Below, one piece after another: positions 4,745 to 17,950 of a stretch of 64,000 nt of DNA. This DNA comes from Gemmatimonadaceae bacterium. GTDB lineage: Bacteria; Gemmatimonadota; Gemmatimonadetes; Gemmatimonadales; Gemmatimonadaceae. How positions within the stretch are numbered: the stretch's first letter is position 1; the number at the start of each line of letters is the position of its first letter. Under the pieces are notes generated by a model that saw only the letters and a list, made by a program, of their open reading frames with translations, was not told the DNA's origin and made no database searches. The stretch spans positions 1,504,001 to 1,568,000 of the forward strand of contig JBJMOW010000005.1 in NCBI GenBank assembly GCA_045803545.1, in the 5' to 3' direction. The translations under genes were made by a program, and so were the position numbers.

Positions 4745-6558
4745 GCGTGCGCCTGCGCCCCCTCGCGGGTGATCATCTCGCCGATGCTGCTCCCCGGCGG
4801 CACCAGCGGAAATACGTTCGCTTCGCGCTCGACCCTGAAGTCGAGCACCGCCGAGCCGTCGTGATTCCAGGCGCACTCGATTGCATCGTGCGCCTGCTCG
4901 ATGCGATCGACGGTGAACCCGCGCAGTCCGTACGCTTCGGCGAGACCGGCGAAGCTGGGACCCGACAGTGGCGTGCCGCTGTAGCGCTTGCCCTCGAACA
5001 ACTGCTGCCACTGACGCACCATGCCGAGGTAGCCGTTGTTCACGATCGCCACTTTCACATTCCGGATTCCCTCCTGATTGATCGTCGCCAACTCCTGGTT
5101 GGTCATCTGGAATCCGCCGTCGCCGACGATCGCCCAGATCGTTTCGTCGGGATGCGCGATCGCCGCTCCCATCGCCGCCGGTACGGCAAACCCCATCGTG
5201 CCCGCGCCGCCGCTGGTGATATGTGTGCGTGGACGTCGCCACTCGATCAGCTGCGCCGCCCACATCTGGTGCTGGCCGACGTCGGTGACGACGCGATAGC
5301 CGCCGCGTTCGTTGAGCGCTGCGTTCAGCGCAGCATAGACATCGTGCGGCATCAGCTCCGCGGTGTCAGGCCGGCGCAGATACGGCTGGCGGTGCTGGTG
5401 CGTCGTCTGACTATCTCGAATGTCCTGCAGCCAAACGAGCGCATCACGCGCCGGAGTTTCTTCGATTAACGCGAGCAAAGCCGCGCGTGCATCGCCGACG
5501 ATGGCGACGGCGACTTTCACGTTCTTGCCGATCTCCGCCGGATCGATGTCGACGTGAATCACTCGCGCCCGCGGCGCAAATGTGGATGCCTTGCCGGTGA
5601 CGCGATCGTCGAAGCGCGCGCCGATGTTGATCAGCACGTCGCACTCCTGAATCGCGCGATTGACGTGCACCCAGCCGTGCATGCCCGGCATGCCAATGCT
5701 GAGCGGATGATCCTCGGGAAACGCACCGATTCCCTGAAGAGTCGTAATCACCGGAATGCCGGTGCGCTCGGCAAACACGCGCAACTCCGCTGCGGCGCCC
5801 GAGATGATCACGCCTTGCCCGGCGAGAATTAACGGCTTGCTCGCGTTGGCAAGGAGCCGAGCTGCCTGCTTCACCGCCTCCCGCGTCCCGCCTCCCGCCT
5901 CCCGCCCCTCGCGCACGCCGAGCGAGACGTTCCAGTCGGGGACCACTTTTGCCTGCTGGGCATCCTTGGTGACATCGATCAGCACCGGCCCTGGACGCCC
6001 ACTGCGCGCGATGTGAAACGCCTCGTGAAACACGCTCGGCAGGTCATCGGCGCACGTCACTCGATAATTGTGCTTGGTGATGGGCAGCGTGATGCCGGTG
6101 ATGTCGGTTTCCTGAAACGCATCTTTCCCCAGCACAGCGCTCGACACCTGTCCAGTGATCGCCACCAGCGGGGTGCTATCCATCCAGGCATTGGCGATCG
6201 GAGTGACAAGATTGGTCGCACCTGGTCCGCTGGTCGCGACGCAGACGCCGGGCTTACCGGTTGAGCGAGCGTAACCTTCCGCGGCGTGACCCGCGCCCTG
6301 CTCGTGTCTACACAGCACGTGACGCAGGCAATCGCGGTACTCCCACATCGCGTGGTAGAACGGCATGATCGCGCCCCCGGGAATGCCGAACATCACTTCG
6401 ACATTTTCGCGGAGCAGAGCTTCGCACATCACCTGCGCGCCAGTGCGTTCGCGAGCGGGAGGCGGGAGGGGGGCGGCGAGAGGCGGGAAGCCGGAGGTGG
6501 GCAACGGCAGACCGACAGCGGGTACGGGTACGGAAAACGGAGAGCGCGCGTCGGTCAT
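4741..6558 (-). CDS. ilvB: acetolactate synthase large subunit
   Basis: [38 protein letters not shown] ThDP motif; start ATG 6558 overlapping the ilvD stop. Confidence 0.95.
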
Positions 6559-8366
6559 CGTCCGACTCCGGCCGGAGTCGGCCTGTATGTATCCCGCATC
6601 GAGTGAGTGAGCGCGTCGATCGCGACCGTCGTTGACTTTGTCGTTGGCTCGACGCCGTTGCTCGCGCCGTTCGATGAGTGAGGCCATTCGAGAACAGCGC
6701 CACGACCTGCGTTCGTCACCATCGCCGCGTAACGCGACAGCCATCCGCGCGTATACCGTGGCTTTGGCGCAGTCCACTCGGCGCGACGTGCACGCAGTTC
6801 CGCCGGATCGAGCTCCGCATCCAGTTTGCGATTCGTCAGATCGATGCACACGATGTCCCCATCGCGCAGCAGACCGATCGGACCACCTTCGCCGGACTCG
6901 GGCGAGACGTGACCGATGCACAGCCCGCGGGTGCCGCCCGAGAATCTTCCATCGGTGAGTAACGCCACCTCGGCGCCGATGGGCATTCCCTTCAGCATGC
7001 TGGTGAGCGCCAGCATCTCGCGCATCCCGGGACCACCGCGCGGACCCTCGCCGCGAATCACCAGCACTTCGCCCGGACGAATTCCATTCGCGCGCACTGC
7101 CGCGGCCGCCGACTCCTCGTCTTCGAAAACACGCGCCGGCCCGCGAAACGTCATCTGATGCTGCTCGACCGCACCGACTTTGATCACCGCGCCGCCCGGA
7201 GCGAGATTGCCGAACAGGACGCATAGCGCGCCCCGCTCCGCATGCGGACGAGTGATCGGCCGAATACACTCCTCGTTGAGGTTGCGCACGCCGTCGAGAT
7301 TCTCGGCGATGGTTTTTCCGGTGACAGTGAGCGCATCGGGGAACAGTGTGCCTGGCTTCTTCGCCAGTTCCGCCAGCAGAGCGGGGACACCGCCCGCCGC
7401 GTCGACATCCTGAATGTGCCACTGCCGATCGGCGTCCCACGCCGGCGATACTTTCGCCAGATGCGGCACGCGCTCAGCGACTTCGTTGAATCGCGCCAGC
7501 GGATACTCGATGCCGGCTTCATGCGCGACGGCGATTACGTGCAATAGTGTGTTGGTCGAGCCGCCCATTGCCACATCGAGCGCGACTGCATTGTCGATTG
7601 CTTCGGCGGTGACGATGTCGCGGAAGCGAATGCCCCGGCGAAGGAGCTCCAGCACCTGCGTTGCTGCGGCACGCGCCAGACGATGGCGATCGGGTGAGAC
7701 GGCGAGAATGGTTCCGTTGCCGGGAAGCGCGACGCCCAGCGCTTCGCAAAGACAGTTCATGGAGTTAGCGGTGAACATCCCGCTACAGCTTCCGCACGTC
7801 GGACAGCCGGCGATCTCGAGCTCCTCGAGCCGAGTGTCGTCGATGGTGCCCGCGGCCCGCGCGCCCACCGCCTCGAACACCGAGATCAGATCGACCTTCT
7901 GACCGCCGCGATCGACGCCGGCGCGCATCGGTCCACCGGAAATGAAAATCGTCGGGATGTTGGCGCGCGCCGCGCCCATCAGCATTCCCGGCACGATCTT
8001 GTCGCAGTTGGGGATGCACACCATCGCGTCGAAGCAGTGCGCGTTCACCATCGTCTCCACGGAGTCGGCGATTAACTCGCGCGACGGCAGCGAGAAACGC
8101 ATTCCGTCGTGTCCCATCGCAATGCCGTCGTCGACGCCGATGGTGTTGAACTCGAACGGCACTCCGCCGGCGGCGCGCACCGCTTCCTTCACCACGCGAC
8201 CGAACTCCTGAAGGTGGACGTGACCGGGAATGATCTCGACGAACGAATTGCAGATCGCGACGAACGGCTTGTCGAAATCGCCGCGTTCGCGGATCTGTCC
8301 CGTCGCACGCAACAGACTGCGGTGAGGGGCGCGCTCGAATCCCTTTTTGATGGTGTCGGAGCGCAT
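6555..8366 (-). CDS. ilvD: dihydroxy-acid dehydratase
   Basis: [48 protein letters not shown]. Confidence 0.97.
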
Positions 8367-8406
8367 TTACGGTTTTTGCCTTCTCGGCGGTTGCACGTTG
8401 GTCATG

Positions 8407-8450
8407 AAAAATCGAAGGGCCTCGTCCCCGTGTTTTGGGGAGAGGCCCTC
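8407..8450 (-). terminator. intrinsic terminator (attenuator) upstream of ilvD
   Basis: mRNA GAGGGCCUCUCCCC-aaaacac-GGGGACGAGGCCCUUC followed by GAUUUUU. Confidence 0.8.
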
Positions 8451-8509
8451 TTTCTAGTTGCAACCGAGCGCCTCTCCCGTTTAGGGGAAGAGGCGGTGTC
8501 TGTGAGTGA

Positions 8510-8611
8510 TTACATCGTGTTCAGACCAGTTCTCTTCCCAGTGCCAATAAGTCCCACCCCAATAAGCAGGAGGGACAAAATGAGACCGAGGAGGAGCTGG
8601 CTGCGGATCAC
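8510..8611 (-). CDS. ilv operon leader peptide (M)IRSQLLLGLILSLLLIGVGLIGTGKRTGLNTM
   Basis: 33-aa GTG-start ORF with 10 Leu, 4 Ile, 1 internal Val, lying between the promoter and the terminator. Confidence 0.8.
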   Translation of the reverse strand: MIRSQLLLGLILSLLLIGVGLIGTGKRTGLNTM

Positions 8612-8658
8612 GTTAATGGTCGTGTCGATGTGCGAATGTGAATTGCGTCGTCGGCGGC

Positions 8659-8688
8659 AGCATAACCCCCGATCGAGAACGTTGTCAA
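8659..8688 (-). promoter_or_regulatory. sigma70-type promoter of the ilv operon
   Basis: TTGACA-N18-TATGCT on the minus strand. Confidence 0.7.
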
Positions 8689-8704
8689 GTGCGAAACATT
8701 GCTA

Positions 8705-8943
8705 ACGGAAAGCTGGACGCCGGAAACGGACAACGGGTAACGGTCAGCAGGAAACGGGTAACAGGCAACCGAACACAGGTTACTGATTACGGGTTACGGA
8801 TTGCGCGTGTCCATCAAACAGCGCCCATCTGATCAAAATGATGCGCTACCAGTAACCAGTAACCAGTAACCAGTTTCCCCGTTGCCCGTTGCCCGCTTCC
8901 CGCTTCCCGCCTCCGCCTCCCGCTTCCCGCTTCCCGCTTCCCG
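8705..8943. repeat. heptamer repeat arrays between the divergent ilv and amtB promoters
   Basis: Degenerate GGAAACG/GGGTAAC units at 8705-8780; ACCAGTA units at 8848-8875; CCCGTTG and CCCGCTT units at 8878-8943. Confidence 0.85.
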
Positions 8944-9042
8944 AGTCGTGCGCGTCTTGCACTCATTGTGGCAGAATTGCTCAGTTGCTCGGTGATTTGT
9001 GCATGGCTGAGCTTGGGTTTGTGCAAAAGTTGCAAATTCTGC

Positions 9043-9071
9043 TTGACAACTTGAAACCAGCCGAATATGCT
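9043..9071 (+). promoter_or_regulatory. sigma70-type promoter of the amtB operon
   Basis: TTGACA-N17-TATGCT. Confidence 0.8.
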
Positions 9072-9080
9072 TTGCCGCAC

Positions 9081-9188
9081 ATGATTCTCGCTCGCCGCGT
9101 CTCTTCCAATAACCCGGGAAACAATCGCCAGCTCCCACAGAACCTGTGGGACGTCTTCGATCGTTCCGGGATGAGCGCAATGAGATAA
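9081..9188 (+). CDS. putative Asn/Gln-rich leader peptide MILARRVSSNNPGNNRQLPQNLWDVFDRSGMSAMR
   Basis: 35-aa ORF whose ATG lies 9 nt after the -10 box; 5 Asn and 2 Gln within codons 10-21; followed by a terminator. Confidence 0.75.
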   Translation: MILARRVSSNNPGNNRQLPQNLWDVFDRSGMSAMR

Positions 9189-9216
9189 GCAGCAACTCCA
9201 AGCTCCAGCTGTCATC

Positions 9217-9258
9217 GCCCCGCGTTTCGATCGAATGAACGCGGGGCTTTTTGTTTTT
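9217..9258 (+). terminator. intrinsic terminator (attenuator) upstream of amtB
   Basis: GCCCCGCGTTT-loop-GAACGCGGGGC followed by TTTTTGTTTTT; ends ~40 nt before the amtB start. Confidence 0.88.
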
Positions 9259-9297
9259 CGCAGCAACAACTCTCACCCGTCGCGCCGGAGGAAAACT

Positions 9298-10806
9298 GTG
9301 AAGTGGTTCAAATGGAGCGCAGTGCTGGTCGTACTCGGTTTGCTCGCGTCGCCTGTTGCGTTGTTTGCGCAGGCGGCCGAGGCCGCAAAAATCGACTCTG
9401 TAGCAATACAGACCACCGCCAATTCCACGTCGATCAATTTCGTGTGGACGCTGATCGCCGGGTTCCTGGTGATGTTCATGCAGGCCGGGTTCGCGCTGGT
9501 CGAAACAGGATTCACCCGCTCCAAGAACGCCGGTCACACCATGACCATGAACTTCATGGTCTATGCGATCGGCATGCTCGCCTACTGGGCAATCGGTTTC
9601 GCGTTGCAGGCTGGCGGAATCGGCGCGCTCACGACACTCGGCGGCTACGACAAGCTCAACACCGAGTTCGCCGTTAACATCGGCGGTCACGCGTGGGGCT
9701 TGTTCGGGATGCAGGGCTTCTTCCTCACCGGCGTCGCGTACAACGCGTCGATCTTCGCGTATTTCCTGTTTCAGATGGTGTTCATGGACACCACGGCGAC
9801 GATTCCCACGGGCGCGGCGGCGGAACGATGGAAGTTCTCGGCGTTTTGCATTTTCTCAGTCTTTATCGCCGCCGTCATCTACCCGATTTACGCCAACTGG
9901 GTTTGGGGCAACGGCTGGCTCTCCGCACTCGGTAAGAACGCCGGGCTCGGCCACGGCCACGTCGATTTTGCGGGATCGTCGGTGGTGCACATGACCGGCG
10001 GCGTGCTCGCATTGGTCGCCGGCAAACTCATTGGTCCACGGCGCGGCAAGTACAACGCCGACGGAACTGCCAACGCCATTCCCGGACACAACATCCCAAT
10101 GGCGCTGCTCGGCACGTTCATCCTGGCCTTCGGTTGGTTCGGCTTCAACCCGGGCTCCACGCTCGCCGGCATGGATTCGCGCATCGCGGTCATCGCCACC
10201 AACACCATGCTGGCGGGAGCCGCCGGTGCGATCGCGGCGATGATCTACGTCTGGAGACTATACGGGAAGCCCGATCCATCAATGCTCGCCAACGGGATGC
10301 TCGCCGGTCTCGTCGCGATCACCGCGCCGTGCGCGTTCGTCACTGCGCCGTCGGCGGTTCTCATCGGCGCTGTCGCGGGAGTTCTCGTCTGCTTCGCCGT
10401 GGTCTTCATCGAGCGCAGGCTCAGGATCGACGATCCCGTCGGCGCGAGCTCGGTCCACGGTGTCTGCGGCCTCTGGGGCGTTCTGTCAGTCGGATTGTTG
10501 GCCGACGGCACTTATGGCGACGGGTTGAACGGTGTCGCAGGCAACGTGCGAGGACTCTTTTACGGCGACGCGAGCCAGCTCGGTGCCCAGCTGATCGGCA
10601 TCACCACCAACATCGTCTGGGTCGGACTCGCCGGCTACGCGGCCTGGAAAATCACCGGCTGGCTAACCAGTGGACATCGCGTATCGCCCGCTATCGAAGA
10701 GCACGGACTCGATCTGCCGGAGATGGGAGCACTCGCCTATCCCGATCAGGCCGATCTGTCGTCCGGAGTCGTGATCGCCACCGACGCCGTCCGTCCCGCT
10801 GCGTAG
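9298..10806 (+). CDS. amtB: ammonium transporter (Amt family)
   Basis: FMQAGFALVETG, FQMVF, DFAGSSVVH, GWFGFNPGS, IDDPVGASSVHG; GTG start after GGAGG. Confidence 0.95.
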   Translation: MKWFKWSAVLVVLGLLASPVALFAQAAEAAKIDSVAIQTTANSTSINFVWTLIAGFLVMFMQAGFALVETGFTRSKNAGHTMTMNFMVYAIGMLAYWAIGFALQAGGIGALTTLGGYDKLNTEFAVNIGGHAWGLFGMQGFFLTGVAYNASIFAYFLFQMVFMDTTATIPTGAAAERWKFSAFCIFSVFIAAVIYPIYANWVWGNGWLSALGKNAGLGHGHVDFAGSSVVHMTGGVLALVAGKLIGPRRGKYNADGTANAIPGHNIPMALLGTFILAFGWFGFNPGSTLAGMDSRIAVIATNTMLAGAAGAIAAMIYVWRLYGKPDPSMLANGMLAGLVAITAPCAFVTAPSAVLIGAVAGVLVCFAVVFIERRLRIDDPVGASSVHGVCGLWGVLSVGLLADGTYGDGLNGVAGNVRGLFYGDASQLGAQLIGITTNIVWVGLAGYAAWKITGWLTSGHRVSPAIEEHGLDLPEMGALAYPDQADLSSGVVIATDAVRPAA

Positions 10807-10890
10807 CGGGAAGCGGGAAGCGGGAAGCGGGAAGCGGGAAGCCGGTAACGGGTAACGCGTTACCGGTTACGCGTTACGGGTTACGGGCAA
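10807..10890. repeat. heptamer array (GGGAAGC)n-(GGGTAAC)n-(GCGTTAC/GGGTTAC)n
   Basis: Directly visible between amtB and glnK. Confidence 0.9.
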
Positions 10891-10927
10891 CAGATCTGAA
10901 TTCATTTTTTCACGCAACGAGGATCTA

Positions 10928-11326
10928 ATGAAACTCATTAGCTGCGTCATCCGCCCGGAGCGACTGGGGGCGGTGAAGGAAGCCTTGTTTCAAGCTGGTG
11001 TTACTGGAATCAGCATCAGCCGCGTCAGCGGACACGGCGGCGAACACGAGGTCGTCGAGCATTATCGCGGCTCGTCGGTCGTGCTCGAGTTCCGCGAGAA
11101 AGTCAAAGTCGAGATGGCGTGCTCGGAGCCGTTCGTCGAGCCGACAATAAGGGCGATTCTGTCCTCAGCTCGCACCGGCGAAGTCGGCGACGGAAAAATA
11201 TTCGTCCAGCCGCTGGAGCAAGTCATTCGGATTCGCACCGGCGAGCGCGACAACGCCGCGCTCACCCCCATTACCGCCGACGATGTCCAGCGCCGCGCGC
11301 GCGGCTTAGCGCTCTCAGCCGTTTAA
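10928..11326 (+). CDS. glnK: nitrogen regulatory protein P-II, divergent
   Basis: YRG T-loop, TGEVGDGKIFV, RIRTGE; downstream of amtB. Confidence 0.9.
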   Translation: MKLISCVIRPERLGAVKEALFQAGVTGISISRVSGHGGEHEVVEHYRGSSVVLEFREKVKVEMACSEPFVEPTIRAILSSARTGEVGDGKIFVQPLEQVIRIRTGERDNAALTPITADDVQRRARGLALSAV

Positions 11327-11362
11327 ACGAACGCCACCCTACGCCTCACAGGAGACCACGAG

Positions 11363-12637
11363 ATGCACCGAACATCCGCAGTTGCTCGCGTATCGCCTCC
11401 CCCATCCCGAGCGGGGCCCTTGCTGATTCACCTTGTTGCATTGATGCTGGCGCTTCTTGTCGCCGTCGTCGCCAACGCGCAAGGCGTGAAGCTCCAGCCC
11501 AGCGATTCAGTCGCTCCGGCAGTGTTGAGAGCCGACTCCAAGTATTCTCCCGCCGACACCACCGCAAAAGTCGACGCGGCCGCAAAAGCCGACGCCGCCG
11601 CCGCGCTTCCCAAGTGGTTCGAGGATCTTGCGCTGAACGCCTTCGTCTCCACCGCCTACGAGTACAACACCAACCGCCCCGCTCCCGGCACCAACAGCTA
11701 CCGCGTCTTCGACTTCAACGACAACTCGTTCAACCTCGACGTCGCCGAAGTCGTCGTGCAGATCGCCGCATCGAAACCGAACGACGCCGGCTTTCGCGTT
11801 GACGTCGATGCGGGAAATTCGATTCCGCAGATCGCGAAAACTCAGGATCAGACGGCGACTCAGTTCGATCTCCAGCAAGCATTCGCCACCTACATCGCGC
11901 CGATCGGCTCCGGTCTCCGCTTCGACGTCGGCAAGTACGTCACCCACCTCGGGTACGAGGTGATCGAGGGTTACGACGGCTACAACGACAACTACAGCCG
12001 GTCGATTCTCTTCGGCTACGCGATCCCGTTCACTCACACCGGGGTCAAAGCGACCTACGCCTTCTCGAGCAAAGTCGCTGGCATGTTCGAAGTGGTGAAC
12101 GGGTGGGATCTGCTGCGCGACAACAACCGCTCGAAGTCGCTCGGCGCACAGCTCACGTTGACACCGGCAGCGCCGTTCAGCGTACTCCTGAACTGGATCG
12201 GCGGACCGGAGCTCGCCAACGACAATCACACCAAGCGCAACGTCTTCGACGTCGTCGCGATACTCAAACCGACCAATCGGCTGACGCTCGGCGTCAACGG
12301 TGATTACGGGATCGAGGACGGCACCAGTCGAGTGAATCCCGGCTCTGATGCGATCTGGAAAGGCATCGCCGGCTATGCCGTGCTCGGACTCAAAGAAAAT
12401 CTCTCCGTCGGTTTACGCGGCGAGACCTTCCACGACGACGGTGGCGTCCGACTCGGCACCGATACGAAAGCGAGATTGTCGGAAGCTACGCTCACACCAG
12501 TCTACAAGTTCACCAATCACGTACTGGCGCGCGGAGAAGTTCGCTTCGACAAGGCGAACCAACCAATCCTCGCCAAGCGCGGAACGCTGAGCGACAAGCA
12601 GACGACGATCGGCCTCAACGTGATCTTTGTGTATTGA
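11363..12637 (+). CDS. putative outer-membrane beta-barrel porin
   Basis: Signal peptide, NYSRSILFGYAIPFTHTG motif, alternating beta pattern, C-terminal aromatic residue. Confidence 0.75.
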   Translation: MHRTSAVARVSPPPSRAGPLLIHLVALMLALLVAVVANAQGVKLQPSDSVAPAVLRADSKYSPADTTAKVDAAAKADAAAALPKWFEDLALNAFVSTAYEYNTNRPAPGTNSYRVFDFNDNSFNLDVAEVVVQIAASKPNDAGFRVDVDAGNSIPQIAKTQDQTATQFDLQQAFATYIAPIGSGLRFDVGKYVTHLGYEVIEGYDGYNDNYSRSILFGYAIPFTHTGVKATYAFSSKVAGMFEVVNGWDLLRDNNRSKSLGAQLTLTPAAPFSVLLNWIGGPELANDNHTKRNVFDVVAILKPTNRLTLGVNGDYGIEDGTSRVNPGSDAIWKGIAGYAVLGLKENLSVGLRGETFHDDGGVRLGTDTKARLSEATLTPVYKFTNHVLARGEVRFDKANQPILAKRGTLSDKQTTIGLNVIFVY

Positions 12638-17827: not shown

Positions 17828-17950
17828 GCGGGAAGCGGGAAGCGGGAAGCGGAAAGCGGGAAGCGGGAAACGGGCAACGGGCAACGGGCAACGGGCAACG
17901 GGCAACGGGCAACGGGCAACGGGTTACGCGTTACGCGTTACGCGTAACGG
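17828..17950. repeat. heptamer array (GGGAAGC)n-(GGGCAAC)n-(GCGTTAC)n
   Basis: Fills the whole interval between the attenuator terminator and the leuC start. Confidence 0.92.

Follow-up and report, generated by a model that had tools for sequence, protein, structure and literature searches.

What governs ammonium uptake in the Gemmatimonadaceae is the question raised by a 64,000-nt stretch of DNA from a bacterium of this family (contig JBJMOW010000005.1, positions 1,504,001 to 1,568,000 of the forward strand; the whole stretch is called the window here), in which a short open reading frame (ORF) with a cluster of Asn codons, followed by an intrinsic terminator, lies between a promoter and amtB. 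We consider it very probable that this region is a real, conserved leader-peptide attenuator that works by the decoding of Asn codons. Ribosome-mediated attenuation of a nitrogen-uptake operon is well supported by sequence conservation, reading frame, codon pattern, helix geometry and gene context; that the attenuator acts as a glutamine-linked gauge of nitrogen is a less secure proposal, which we hold to be rather probable. Most likely, a familiar attenuation mechanism has been put to an apparently undescribed use, the control of nitrogen uptake by Asn codons. An earlier reading of this DNA, made from its letters alone (the sequence-only reading), had proposed an Asn/Gln-codon attenuator for the operon, and the promoter, the 35-codon ORF with its Asn and Gln codons, the terminator and the amtB ribosome-binding site all lie where it had placed them:

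9043..9071, + strand: predicted sigma-70-type promoter (TTGACA at 9043, 17-nt spacer, TATGCT at 9066-9071)
9081..9188, + strand: leader ORF of 35 codons (ATG at 9081, TAA at 9186-9188)
9111..9125, + strand: putative control codons N11-x-x-N14-N15, marked by Asn conservation and synonymous changes
9113..9170, + strand: 1:2 protector hairpin of the minimum-free-energy fold (outer stem 9113-9119/9164-9170, inner stem 9134-9140/9144-9150)
9153..9170, + strand: segment 2, codons 25-30, the predicted 5' strand of the antiterminator (pairs 9154-9163/9228-9238 and 9166-9170/9219-9224)
9217..9258, + strand: intrinsic terminator 3:4 (11-bp stem 9217-9227/9237-9247, U-tract 9248-9258)
9287..9291, + strand: amtB ribosome-binding site GGAGG, from the sequence

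In the mechanism that we propose, a ribosome supplied with plentiful Asn-tRNA would reach the stop codon and cover segment 2, the terminator would form, and transcription would end near 9258. With Asn-tRNA scarce, the ribosome would wait on N11, N14 and N15 and cover segment 1, so that segment 2 could pair with the 5' arm and loop of the terminator while the 3' arm is still to be transcribed; RNA polymerase would then read past this antiterminator into amtB, glnK and a porin gene. Nitrogen limitation would lower Asn-tRNA, the amide of Asn coming from glutamine by way of an AsnB-type enzyme or GatCAB, which is the least certain step. A DNA-binding protein at an operator-like site upstream probably adds control at initiation.

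We searched for relatives of the leader with the DNA of positions 9040-9300. Homologues were found in 34 of 109 genomes of the Gemmatimonadaceae genus, some with two or three copies, and in 8 of the 31 near-complete ones; the 34 include a 31-nt piece in genome G466 that is probably a chance match. A first set of 45 distinct leaders was drawn from the loci of the DNA search, 13 further regions and a pattern scan; L143 came from the pattern scan alone, the others by DNA similarity, and L047 (from G488) was left out of alignments A1-A3 and of the tree, no conclusion resting on it. A second set came from a pattern scan of metagenomes that yielded 117 stretches, 80 of them with DNA, and 69 new distinct leaders, for a total of 114; because the NN, P-Q/R and W codons were part of what was scanned for, this set is uninformative on those positions. 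Outside the genus, the DNA search of 401 genomes of the order gave only short weak pieces, a peptide profile run on 401 genomes of the phylum gave three weak matches (E 0.001-0.005), all inside long open frames, and a covariance model gave just two marginal matches (E about 0.05) in 151 genomes of the family. Thirty-eight of 45 pattern matches fell in Gemmatimonadota, and the seven outside it had neither a profile match nor the leader anatomy. In the genomes searched, the leader was thus not found beyond the genus, which is a statement about these searches and not a claim of absence. Genome G000 yielded no second copy, its second amtB has no leader upstream, and the regions upstream of 52 other amt loci contained neither a profile match nor an Asn leader followed by a terminator.

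The leader frame was stop-free in all 113 copies tested (44/44 of the first set and 69/69 of the second), whereas the other two frames contained stops in 28/44 and 39/44 copies of the first set and in 51/69 and 65/69 of the second. Each of these 113 has an in-frame start codon (44/44, with 42 ATG and 2 GTG, and 69/69), and the ATGs of the start zone are distributed over the three frames as 42/0/0 and 70/0/2 in the two sets. TAG follows directly after Gly30 in 40 of the 45 first-set leaders, and the stop lies at the same place in 67/69 of the second set. The ORF has 35 codons in the window and 28-31 in most homologues, its length differing by whole codons. These patterns indicate that the leader ORF is under selection as an ORF. 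The sequence-only reading had also described a near-leaderless start, which we rejected as a conserved feature: of 43 copies, 5 have the -35 hexamer 36-44 nt before the start codon, and in the other 38 this distance is 62-91 nt. Most leaders carry a C/A-rich 5' untranslated region, and a Shine-Dalgarno-like 4-mer occurs in only 1 of 44. In one leader, L257, the ORF is intact and the terminator deleted, so constitutive read-through is predicted there.

The same observations bear on whether the leader might be a riboswitch that binds a metabolite, perhaps glutamine, the ORF being there by chance. Glutamine riboswitches (as at glnA) and downstream-peptide riboswitches, each an Rfam family, provide cis-acting RNA control of nitrogen genes, including those for ammonium transporters and glutamine synthetase, and the high nucleotide conservation of 9120-9170 together with a terminator resembling an expression platform would suit such an element. 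Nevertheless, a riboswitch leaves unexplained why start-zone ATGs keep to one frame, why stops are excluded from the leader frame only and why the stop codon is fixed. A search of Rfam 15 gave no match at gathering score in the window, the best score over the leader being 20.1 bits against a cut-off of 67, and at E up to 10 the leader returned only sub-threshold, terminator-like matches. The evidence points to decoding and not to ligand binding, unlike in these riboswitches, and we regard a riboswitch as highly improbable.

The codon pattern suggests which amino acid is read. The window leader has Asn at codons 10, 11, 14, 15 and 21 and Gln at codons 17 and 20. Across the first set, Asn occupies positions 11, 14 and 15 in 44/45, 44/45 and 45/45 leaders, with both AAT and AAC in use, and parsimony on a tree of 43 similarity-derived leaders placed 0/1/4, 0/0/6 and 0/0/5 changes at codon positions 1/2/3 of N11, N14 and N15, respectively; each of the two codons between N11 and N14, by contrast, underwent 11 changes of amino acid. 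Where N11 has been lost (L193, L231, L257 and L221), Asn reappears one codon away, and 112 of the 114 leaders carry at least three Asn within the seven codons of the control region. Asn makes up 13.0% of 3403 leader codons against 3.3% in the long ORFs of the genome, and Gln 3.7% against 3.5%. Thus the Asn half of the codon cluster that the sequence-only reading took for the signal stands, at N11, N14 and N15, and the Gln half does not; nor are N10, Q17 and N21 conserved (11/45, 6/45 and 26/45). From this pattern we conclude that the selected codons are those for Asn. AAT outnumbers AAC by 372 to 71 in the leaders, as opposed to 5932 to 10,824 in the genome; we do not claim this bias as a tuning toward slow decoding, since pairing within the 1:2 helix involves the T of N15 too (82/105).

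Other conserved residues carry a different signature. P19, Q20, L22 and W23 are each encoded by essentially one codon (CCA, CAG, CTG and TGG), with 1, 1, 1 and 0 third-position changes, although the genome uses CCA for Pro only to a minor extent; this is the signature of RNA pairing. These codons form the inner hairpin. Q20 itself, present in 43/45 leaders and always CAG, lies within this invariant hairpin. In L080, codon 20 encodes Arg and forms a G-U pair; in L084, another hairpin replaces PQxLW and NN is retained. Sensing of Gln was rejected, there being no Gln enrichment, Q20 being fixed by the hairpin and Q17 occurring in only 6/45. Sensing of Trp through W23 was likewise rejected, as this single hairpin codon is absent in L084 and lies too far downstream in the footprint model described below.

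These residues also weigh against nascent-peptide arrest, in which the peptide NNRxLPQxLW..ERxG would stall the ribosome in response to glutamine, 2-oxoglutarate or another small molecule, with Asn as part of the arrest motif. Conservation of many residues other than Asn, the small number of control codons and the synonymous variation of R16 and R28 all speak for arrest. However, the frozen third positions of P19, Q20, L22 and W23 are those expected of pairing RNA, the choice of the minor Pro codon CCA fits the same explanation, L084 exchanges PQxLW for a different hairpin while keeping NN, and a ribosome at or past W23 already begins to cover segment 2 (modeled sequestration 0.56 and falling). 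We think arrest improbable.

Three helices are shared by the leader RNAs: the protector 1:2, the antiterminator 2:3 and the terminator 3:4. In the first set, the 2:3 duplex averaged -16.9 kcal/mol against -8.4 for shuffled partners, and the 1:2 duplex -9.8 against -6.5 (44 leaders; L082 was dropped, and L047 was kept with its segment 3 mis-located at -7.1, which is conservative). The helix 9113-9120/9164-9170 described by the sequence-only reading is present in the minimum-free-energy fold as 9113-9119/9164-9170. Its antiterminator, 9167-9174/9212-9222, also exists, yet it proved to be merely the weaker outer part (mean -7.3, window copy -8.1 kcal/mol) of a pairing whose core is 9154-9163/9228-9238 (mean -12.4, window copy -10.9 kcal/mol; -8 or lower in 101/105). 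The terminator 5' arm and loop double as the 3' strand of this antiterminator. Among 105 aligned sequences, 96.7% of cells are paired in 2:3 and 94.4% in the terminator 3:4; the inner 1:2 helix is 98.9% paired and nearly invariant, and the outer 1:2 helix is 81.4% paired, with 16 double-sided changes and a register that shifts between copies. The structure composed of 1:2 and 3:4 is 92.0% paired and shows 51 double-sided cells (reached in 0/500 shuffles), of which a single pair at the base of the terminator accounts for 29. Own-partner 2:3 duplexes were matched by 0 of 20,000 permutations, and by 0, 6 and 18 after thinning to 47, 22 and 9 sequences; the corresponding counts for 1:2 were 50, 56 and 448. 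In the sub-clade of the window (L001, L032, L050 and L240), a change at codons 26-27 goes together with one additional A in the loop of the terminator, which restores 2:3 pairing in a shifted register. The terminator of the window copy formed in every fold that contained both arms; a simple terminator scan had overlooked it because its loop is 9 nt. Of 62 metagenome copies, 52 fitted a strict regular expression for the terminator.

We then modeled the switch by imposing a ribosome footprint on RNA from which the 3' arm of the terminator has yet to emerge, using 41 leaders (L047, L070, L082 and L074 being omitted). With the ribosome anywhere from five codons before N14 to seven after it, the mean probability that the terminator 5' arm and loop are sequestered by RNA upstream was 0.75-0.78; with the ribosome at the last codons and the stop, sequestration fell to 0.31-0.32. 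The window copy gave 0.72 on or near the Asn codons and 0.14-0.21 at the ORF end. In silico, therefore, the predicted antiterminator is exclusive with the terminator, free when the ribosome is on the control codons and covered when it is at the stop.

Several results weigh against this switch. Fixed-register covariation of 2:3 is not significant (three double-sided changes, with 50/500 shuffles as high). The non-interacting 1:3 control scored 1455, 1168 and 229 of 20,000 in the same permutations, and the test is partly confounded by relatedness for this reason. Without a ribosome, sequestration is 0.59 (0.55 in the window copy), indicating that the protector 1:2 is not dominant. At equilibrium, the full transcript favors the terminator at all ribosome positions (0.76-0.99; window 1.00), and forcing the antiterminator costs 9 kcal/mol (-24.3 vs. 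-33.5); any read-through would therefore depend on kinetics. Finally, there are only three or four control codons.

The evidence for transcription is of two kinds. A search of 7000-12000 found two promoter-like sites against a shuffle mean of 1.2, which makes the window promoter call weak on its own; a TTGAC-anchored promoter lies upstream of 43 of the 45 first-set leaders. A soil metatranscriptome contig (177 nt, depth 2.3) is identical to 9092-9188 and continues with 80 nt of variant spacer, a weak hint that the leader is transcribed; the RNA data comprise three runs with a word share of 0.05-0.08, as contigs only, which carry no information on ends or levels.

The genes downstream are those of nitrogen uptake and assimilation. 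In the window they are:

9298..10806, + strand: amtB, ammonium transporter with a GTG start at 9298 (TIGR00836 above cut-off, 369 bits)
10928..11326, + strand: glnK-like PII protein (NF007946 E 4.9e-28, below the equivalog cut-off)
11363..12637, + strand: putative outer-membrane porin, BBP2 (PF07642 E 8.5e-73)

All 100 leaders with enough downstream sequence lead into amtB, glnK-amtB, porin or glnA. The first gene behind the 114 leaders is glnK in 27, a second amtB type in 34, the amtB type of the window in 18, porin in 19 and glnA in 2, with the contig too short in 14 (first set: 15, 12, 8, 5 and 1, with 4 contig ends; second set: 12, 22, 10, 14 and 1, with 10), and no gene unrelated to nitrogen was seen among them. 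The BBP2 porin gene, third in the operon of the window, thus directly follows the leader in some other genomes. Separately, several loci (L006, L007, L033, L034, L048, L054, L056 and others) have a stub of 20-23 codons between terminator and glnK that starts like the AmtB of the window and ends at the glnK start, which suggests a deletion of amtB downstream of the leader that spared the stub, perhaps for translational coupling.

Protein-dependent antitermination of ANTAR type has a precedent at these very genes: in Geobacter sulfurreducens, GnfK/GnfR controls the glnK and amtB leaders by ANTAR antitermination (PMC2995071). The sequence-only reading had taken amtB-glnK to be normally under protein regulators; the conserved operator-like site suggests that one acts here too, and control of these genes at the RNA level was already known from the Geobacter work. 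The two systems would share a glnK/amtB leader terminator relieved under nitrogen limitation on top of promoter control, as we propose for the present leader. Paired six-base A..G.. loops with 3-bp closing stems, present in 78 of 114 leaders, would also suit an ANTAR protein. On the other side, the linker between them is 4 nt, whereas eut leaders have 5-12 nt and lost induction with a linker of 3 nt (PMC3369931); a gap of 20-42 nt separates the end of the second loop from the terminator, so that the two do not overlap; and the window leader has neither loop, while its ORF would be left unexplained. Strong ANTAR matches were found in only 2 of 109 genomes of the genus and not in G000 (93% complete), in a search that gave matches in 18 of 201 genomes of the class. 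Unlike the Geobacter system, where GnfR is an RNA-binding response regulator, these leaders have a conserved ORF and lack both ANTAR genes and ANTAR geometry. We rejected ANTAR control on gene absence, wrong linker and wrong terminator spacing, and give it very little credence.

If the leader is an Asn attenuator, the weakest link is the step from Asn-tRNA to nitrogen, which is the least certain part of the proposal. In each of five genomes, asnS and gatB are present and glnS is absent; Gln-tRNA would be made by GatCAB, because gatB is present and glnS absent. The glutamine dependence of Asn- and Gln-tRNA through GatCAB that the sequence-only reading invoked is in this respect upheld for Gln; for Asn, with asnS present as well, GatCAB is a possible route. 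If an AsnB-type enzyme or GatCAB takes the amide of Asn from glutamine, Asn-tRNA would track nitrogen in either case. The gene inventory contains several points that tell against a nitrogen gauge: (i) AsnA was found in none of the five genomes; (ii) AsnB-type genes occur in 21 of 32 genomes of the genus (a tally that includes G427 and G489) and are missing from the leader-bearing G046, G434, G469 and G481; (iii) the three AsnB-type genes of G000 cluster among genes that, judged from N-termini, read like polysaccharide genes; and (iv) the one aspS scores 572 and 569 bits against discriminating enzymes and 558 against a non-discriminating one, a slight difference that does not decide the specificity of the aspartyl-tRNA synthetase (AspRS).

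Such an inventory would suit the same Asn attenuator with a different input, imported Asn or peptides, in an organism able to make little or no Asn, and ammonium uptake would then open when organic nitrogen is exhausted and not upon a fall in internal glutamine; if the lineage imports Asn, the switch would therefore read the supply of organic nitrogen. Besides asnS in 5/5 genomes and AsnA in 0/5, the absence of AsnB-type genes from 11 of 32 genomes, four of them with the leader, speaks for import, as does a single aspS that carries Leu where the discriminating enzymes of E. coli and Thermus have Leu, with no second, archaeal-type AspRS among the matches to the asnS model. Yet gatB is in all five genomes, and this Leu does not prevent a bacterial-type AspRS from being non-discriminating, as in B. 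subtilis and S. aureus. Moreover, a true auxotroph would not regain Asn by taking up ammonium, and the genomes are incomplete metagenome-assembled genomes. We judge imported Asn an unlikely input, and prefer an Asn attenuator whose signal is glutamine-derived.

A second layer of control is suggested by one further feature of the window:

9022..9034, no strand: TGCA-N5-TGCA palindromic operator-like site, beginning 21 nt before the -35 hexamer

With at most one mismatch, this site occurs in 19 of 43 leader promoters, perfectly in 14 and always exactly 21 nt before the -35 hexamer (shuffles: mean 0.245, maximum 2). A perfect copy lies upstream of glnA in 3 of 5 genomes (promoters L097, L098 and L101), and the site was found upstream of 6 of 52 other amt loci, as opposed to 1 of 52 gene bodies. 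These positions suggest that TGCA-N5-TGCA is a candidate site of a nitrogen regulator; it may resemble Lrp-type boxes. The site also occurs in L003, L004, L011, L013, L026, L165, L168 and L176, among nitrogen-gene promoters across Gemmatimonadales. At L181:9866-13604 (G000:C2), divergent genes for type III and type I glutamine synthetases share an intergenic region that has two TGCA-type sites and no leader. Of NtrBC, which the sequence-only reading had raised, ntrC (TIGR01818) was above cut-off in none of five genomes, although NtrC-family proteins do exist; on this and on its predicted sigma-70-type promoter, the locus does not fit the model of an NtrC-controlled amtB-glnK (no scan for sigma-54 sites was made). 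A response regulator beside glnA was considered as the DNA-binding regulator and rejected, its HD output not being DNA-binding.

This operator-like site allows a simpler account, in which ORF and terminator are a non-responsive dampener that sets a fixed low read-through and all nitrogen control is exerted at TGCA-N5-TGCA. The conservation of the site and the equilibrium preference for the terminator agree with a dampener, and the amt genes of other genera, like the second amtB of G000, manage without the leader. Against this, selection for Asn at the amino-acid level and the pairing of the antiterminator would go unexplained, and 24 of 43 leader promoters lack the site and keep the leader. 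A dampener seems to us scarcely credible. Taking the preferred Asn attenuator together with the operator-like site, we offer, tentatively and as something short of an even chance, a translation-coupled nitrogen regulon in which a portable attenuator before amtB, glnK, glnA or porin reads Asn synthesis by GatCAB as a glutamine gauge, beside a regulator at TGCA-N5-TGCA that replaces NtrBC.

Firmicutes have Asn T-boxes, which bind uncharged tRNA-Asn directly, without translation, and control asnS and asn genes; the proposed leader would resemble them in reading the charging state of tRNA-Asn out on a terminator, and Rfam gave no T-box match in the window. The closer likeness is to the classical leader-peptide attenuators of amino-acid biosynthetic operons such as trp, his, leu, thr, ilv and phe (mechanism in PMC1183508). 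The common features are a short, conserved ORF with control codons conserved at the amino-acid level, a protector 1:2, an antiterminator 2:3, an intrinsic terminator 3:4 downstream, and a stop codon at which a ribosome that completes the ORF would lie over segment 2. Unlike in the classical cases, the genes behind this leader import or assimilate nitrogen (AmtB, PII, porin and glutamine synthetase) and none makes the control amino acid, so the usual link between control codon and operon product does not hold for amtB, glnK, porin or glnA; in addition, the amtB leader has no Shine-Dalgarno sequence and is reused before several nitrogen genes, in up to three copies per genome. We found no description of an Asn leader attenuator for amtB, glnK or glnA in the literature, where an earlier prediction within supplementary genome-wide tables is possible.

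Classical attenuators are feedback loops for the pathway of their own control amino acid, whereas here one amino acid would be a proxy for overall nitrogen status. If the proposal is correct, the ribosome would gate ammonium uptake, PII and glutamine synthetase, adding a ribosome-based nitrogen input to PII/GlnD, NtrBC, GlnR/TnrA, NtcA, ANTAR proteins and glutamine riboswitches. It would do so with an element of about 180 nt that needs no dedicated protein, and would provide a first handle on nitrogen regulation in Gemmatimonadaceae.

Three sister attenuators that the sequence-only reading noted nearby are indeed present, all on the minus strand, without Shine-Dalgarno sequences and of the same build as the amtB leader: a Cys-rich ORF with terminator (1920-1822) before a metY-like sulfhydrylase gene, a Leu/Ile/Val-rich ORF with terminator (8611-8510) before ilvD-ilvB-ilvN-ilvC-leuA, and a Leu/Ile-containing ORF with terminator (18087-18010) before leuC. 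Of 32 gltB loci in Gemmatimonadales (among them L306, on G000:C2 before gltB at 1080, and L307-L336), 19 have an upstream ORF (uORF) and a terminator in front of the gene. None of these 19 matches the amtB leader profile; their peptides are mostly rich in Ile, Leu, Val, Ala and Thr, with 0-2 Asn, and only L320 is Asn-rich (1/19), so that these uORFs could be branched-chain or Thr attenuators acting on glutamate synthase.

Other hairpins were seen before nitrogen genes. In another family of the order (L016, L017, L028 and L029), a strong terminator-like hairpin with a U-tract lies about 48 nt upstream of amtB and is possibly another type of attenuator; the sequence in front of it is GC-rich and contains no Asn ORF. 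In other genera of the family (L152, L153 and L155), a short hairpin with a weak U-tract lies between a TTGAC promoter and glnK. L036 (G124) has a different, non-homologous leader ORF with a near-identical terminator before a proC-like gene. Lastly, short tandem repeats with units of 6-7 nt occupy intergenic positions 8850-8945, 10810-10915 and 17830-17930 of the window, and repeats of this kind recur at many places in the genome and in RNA contigs.

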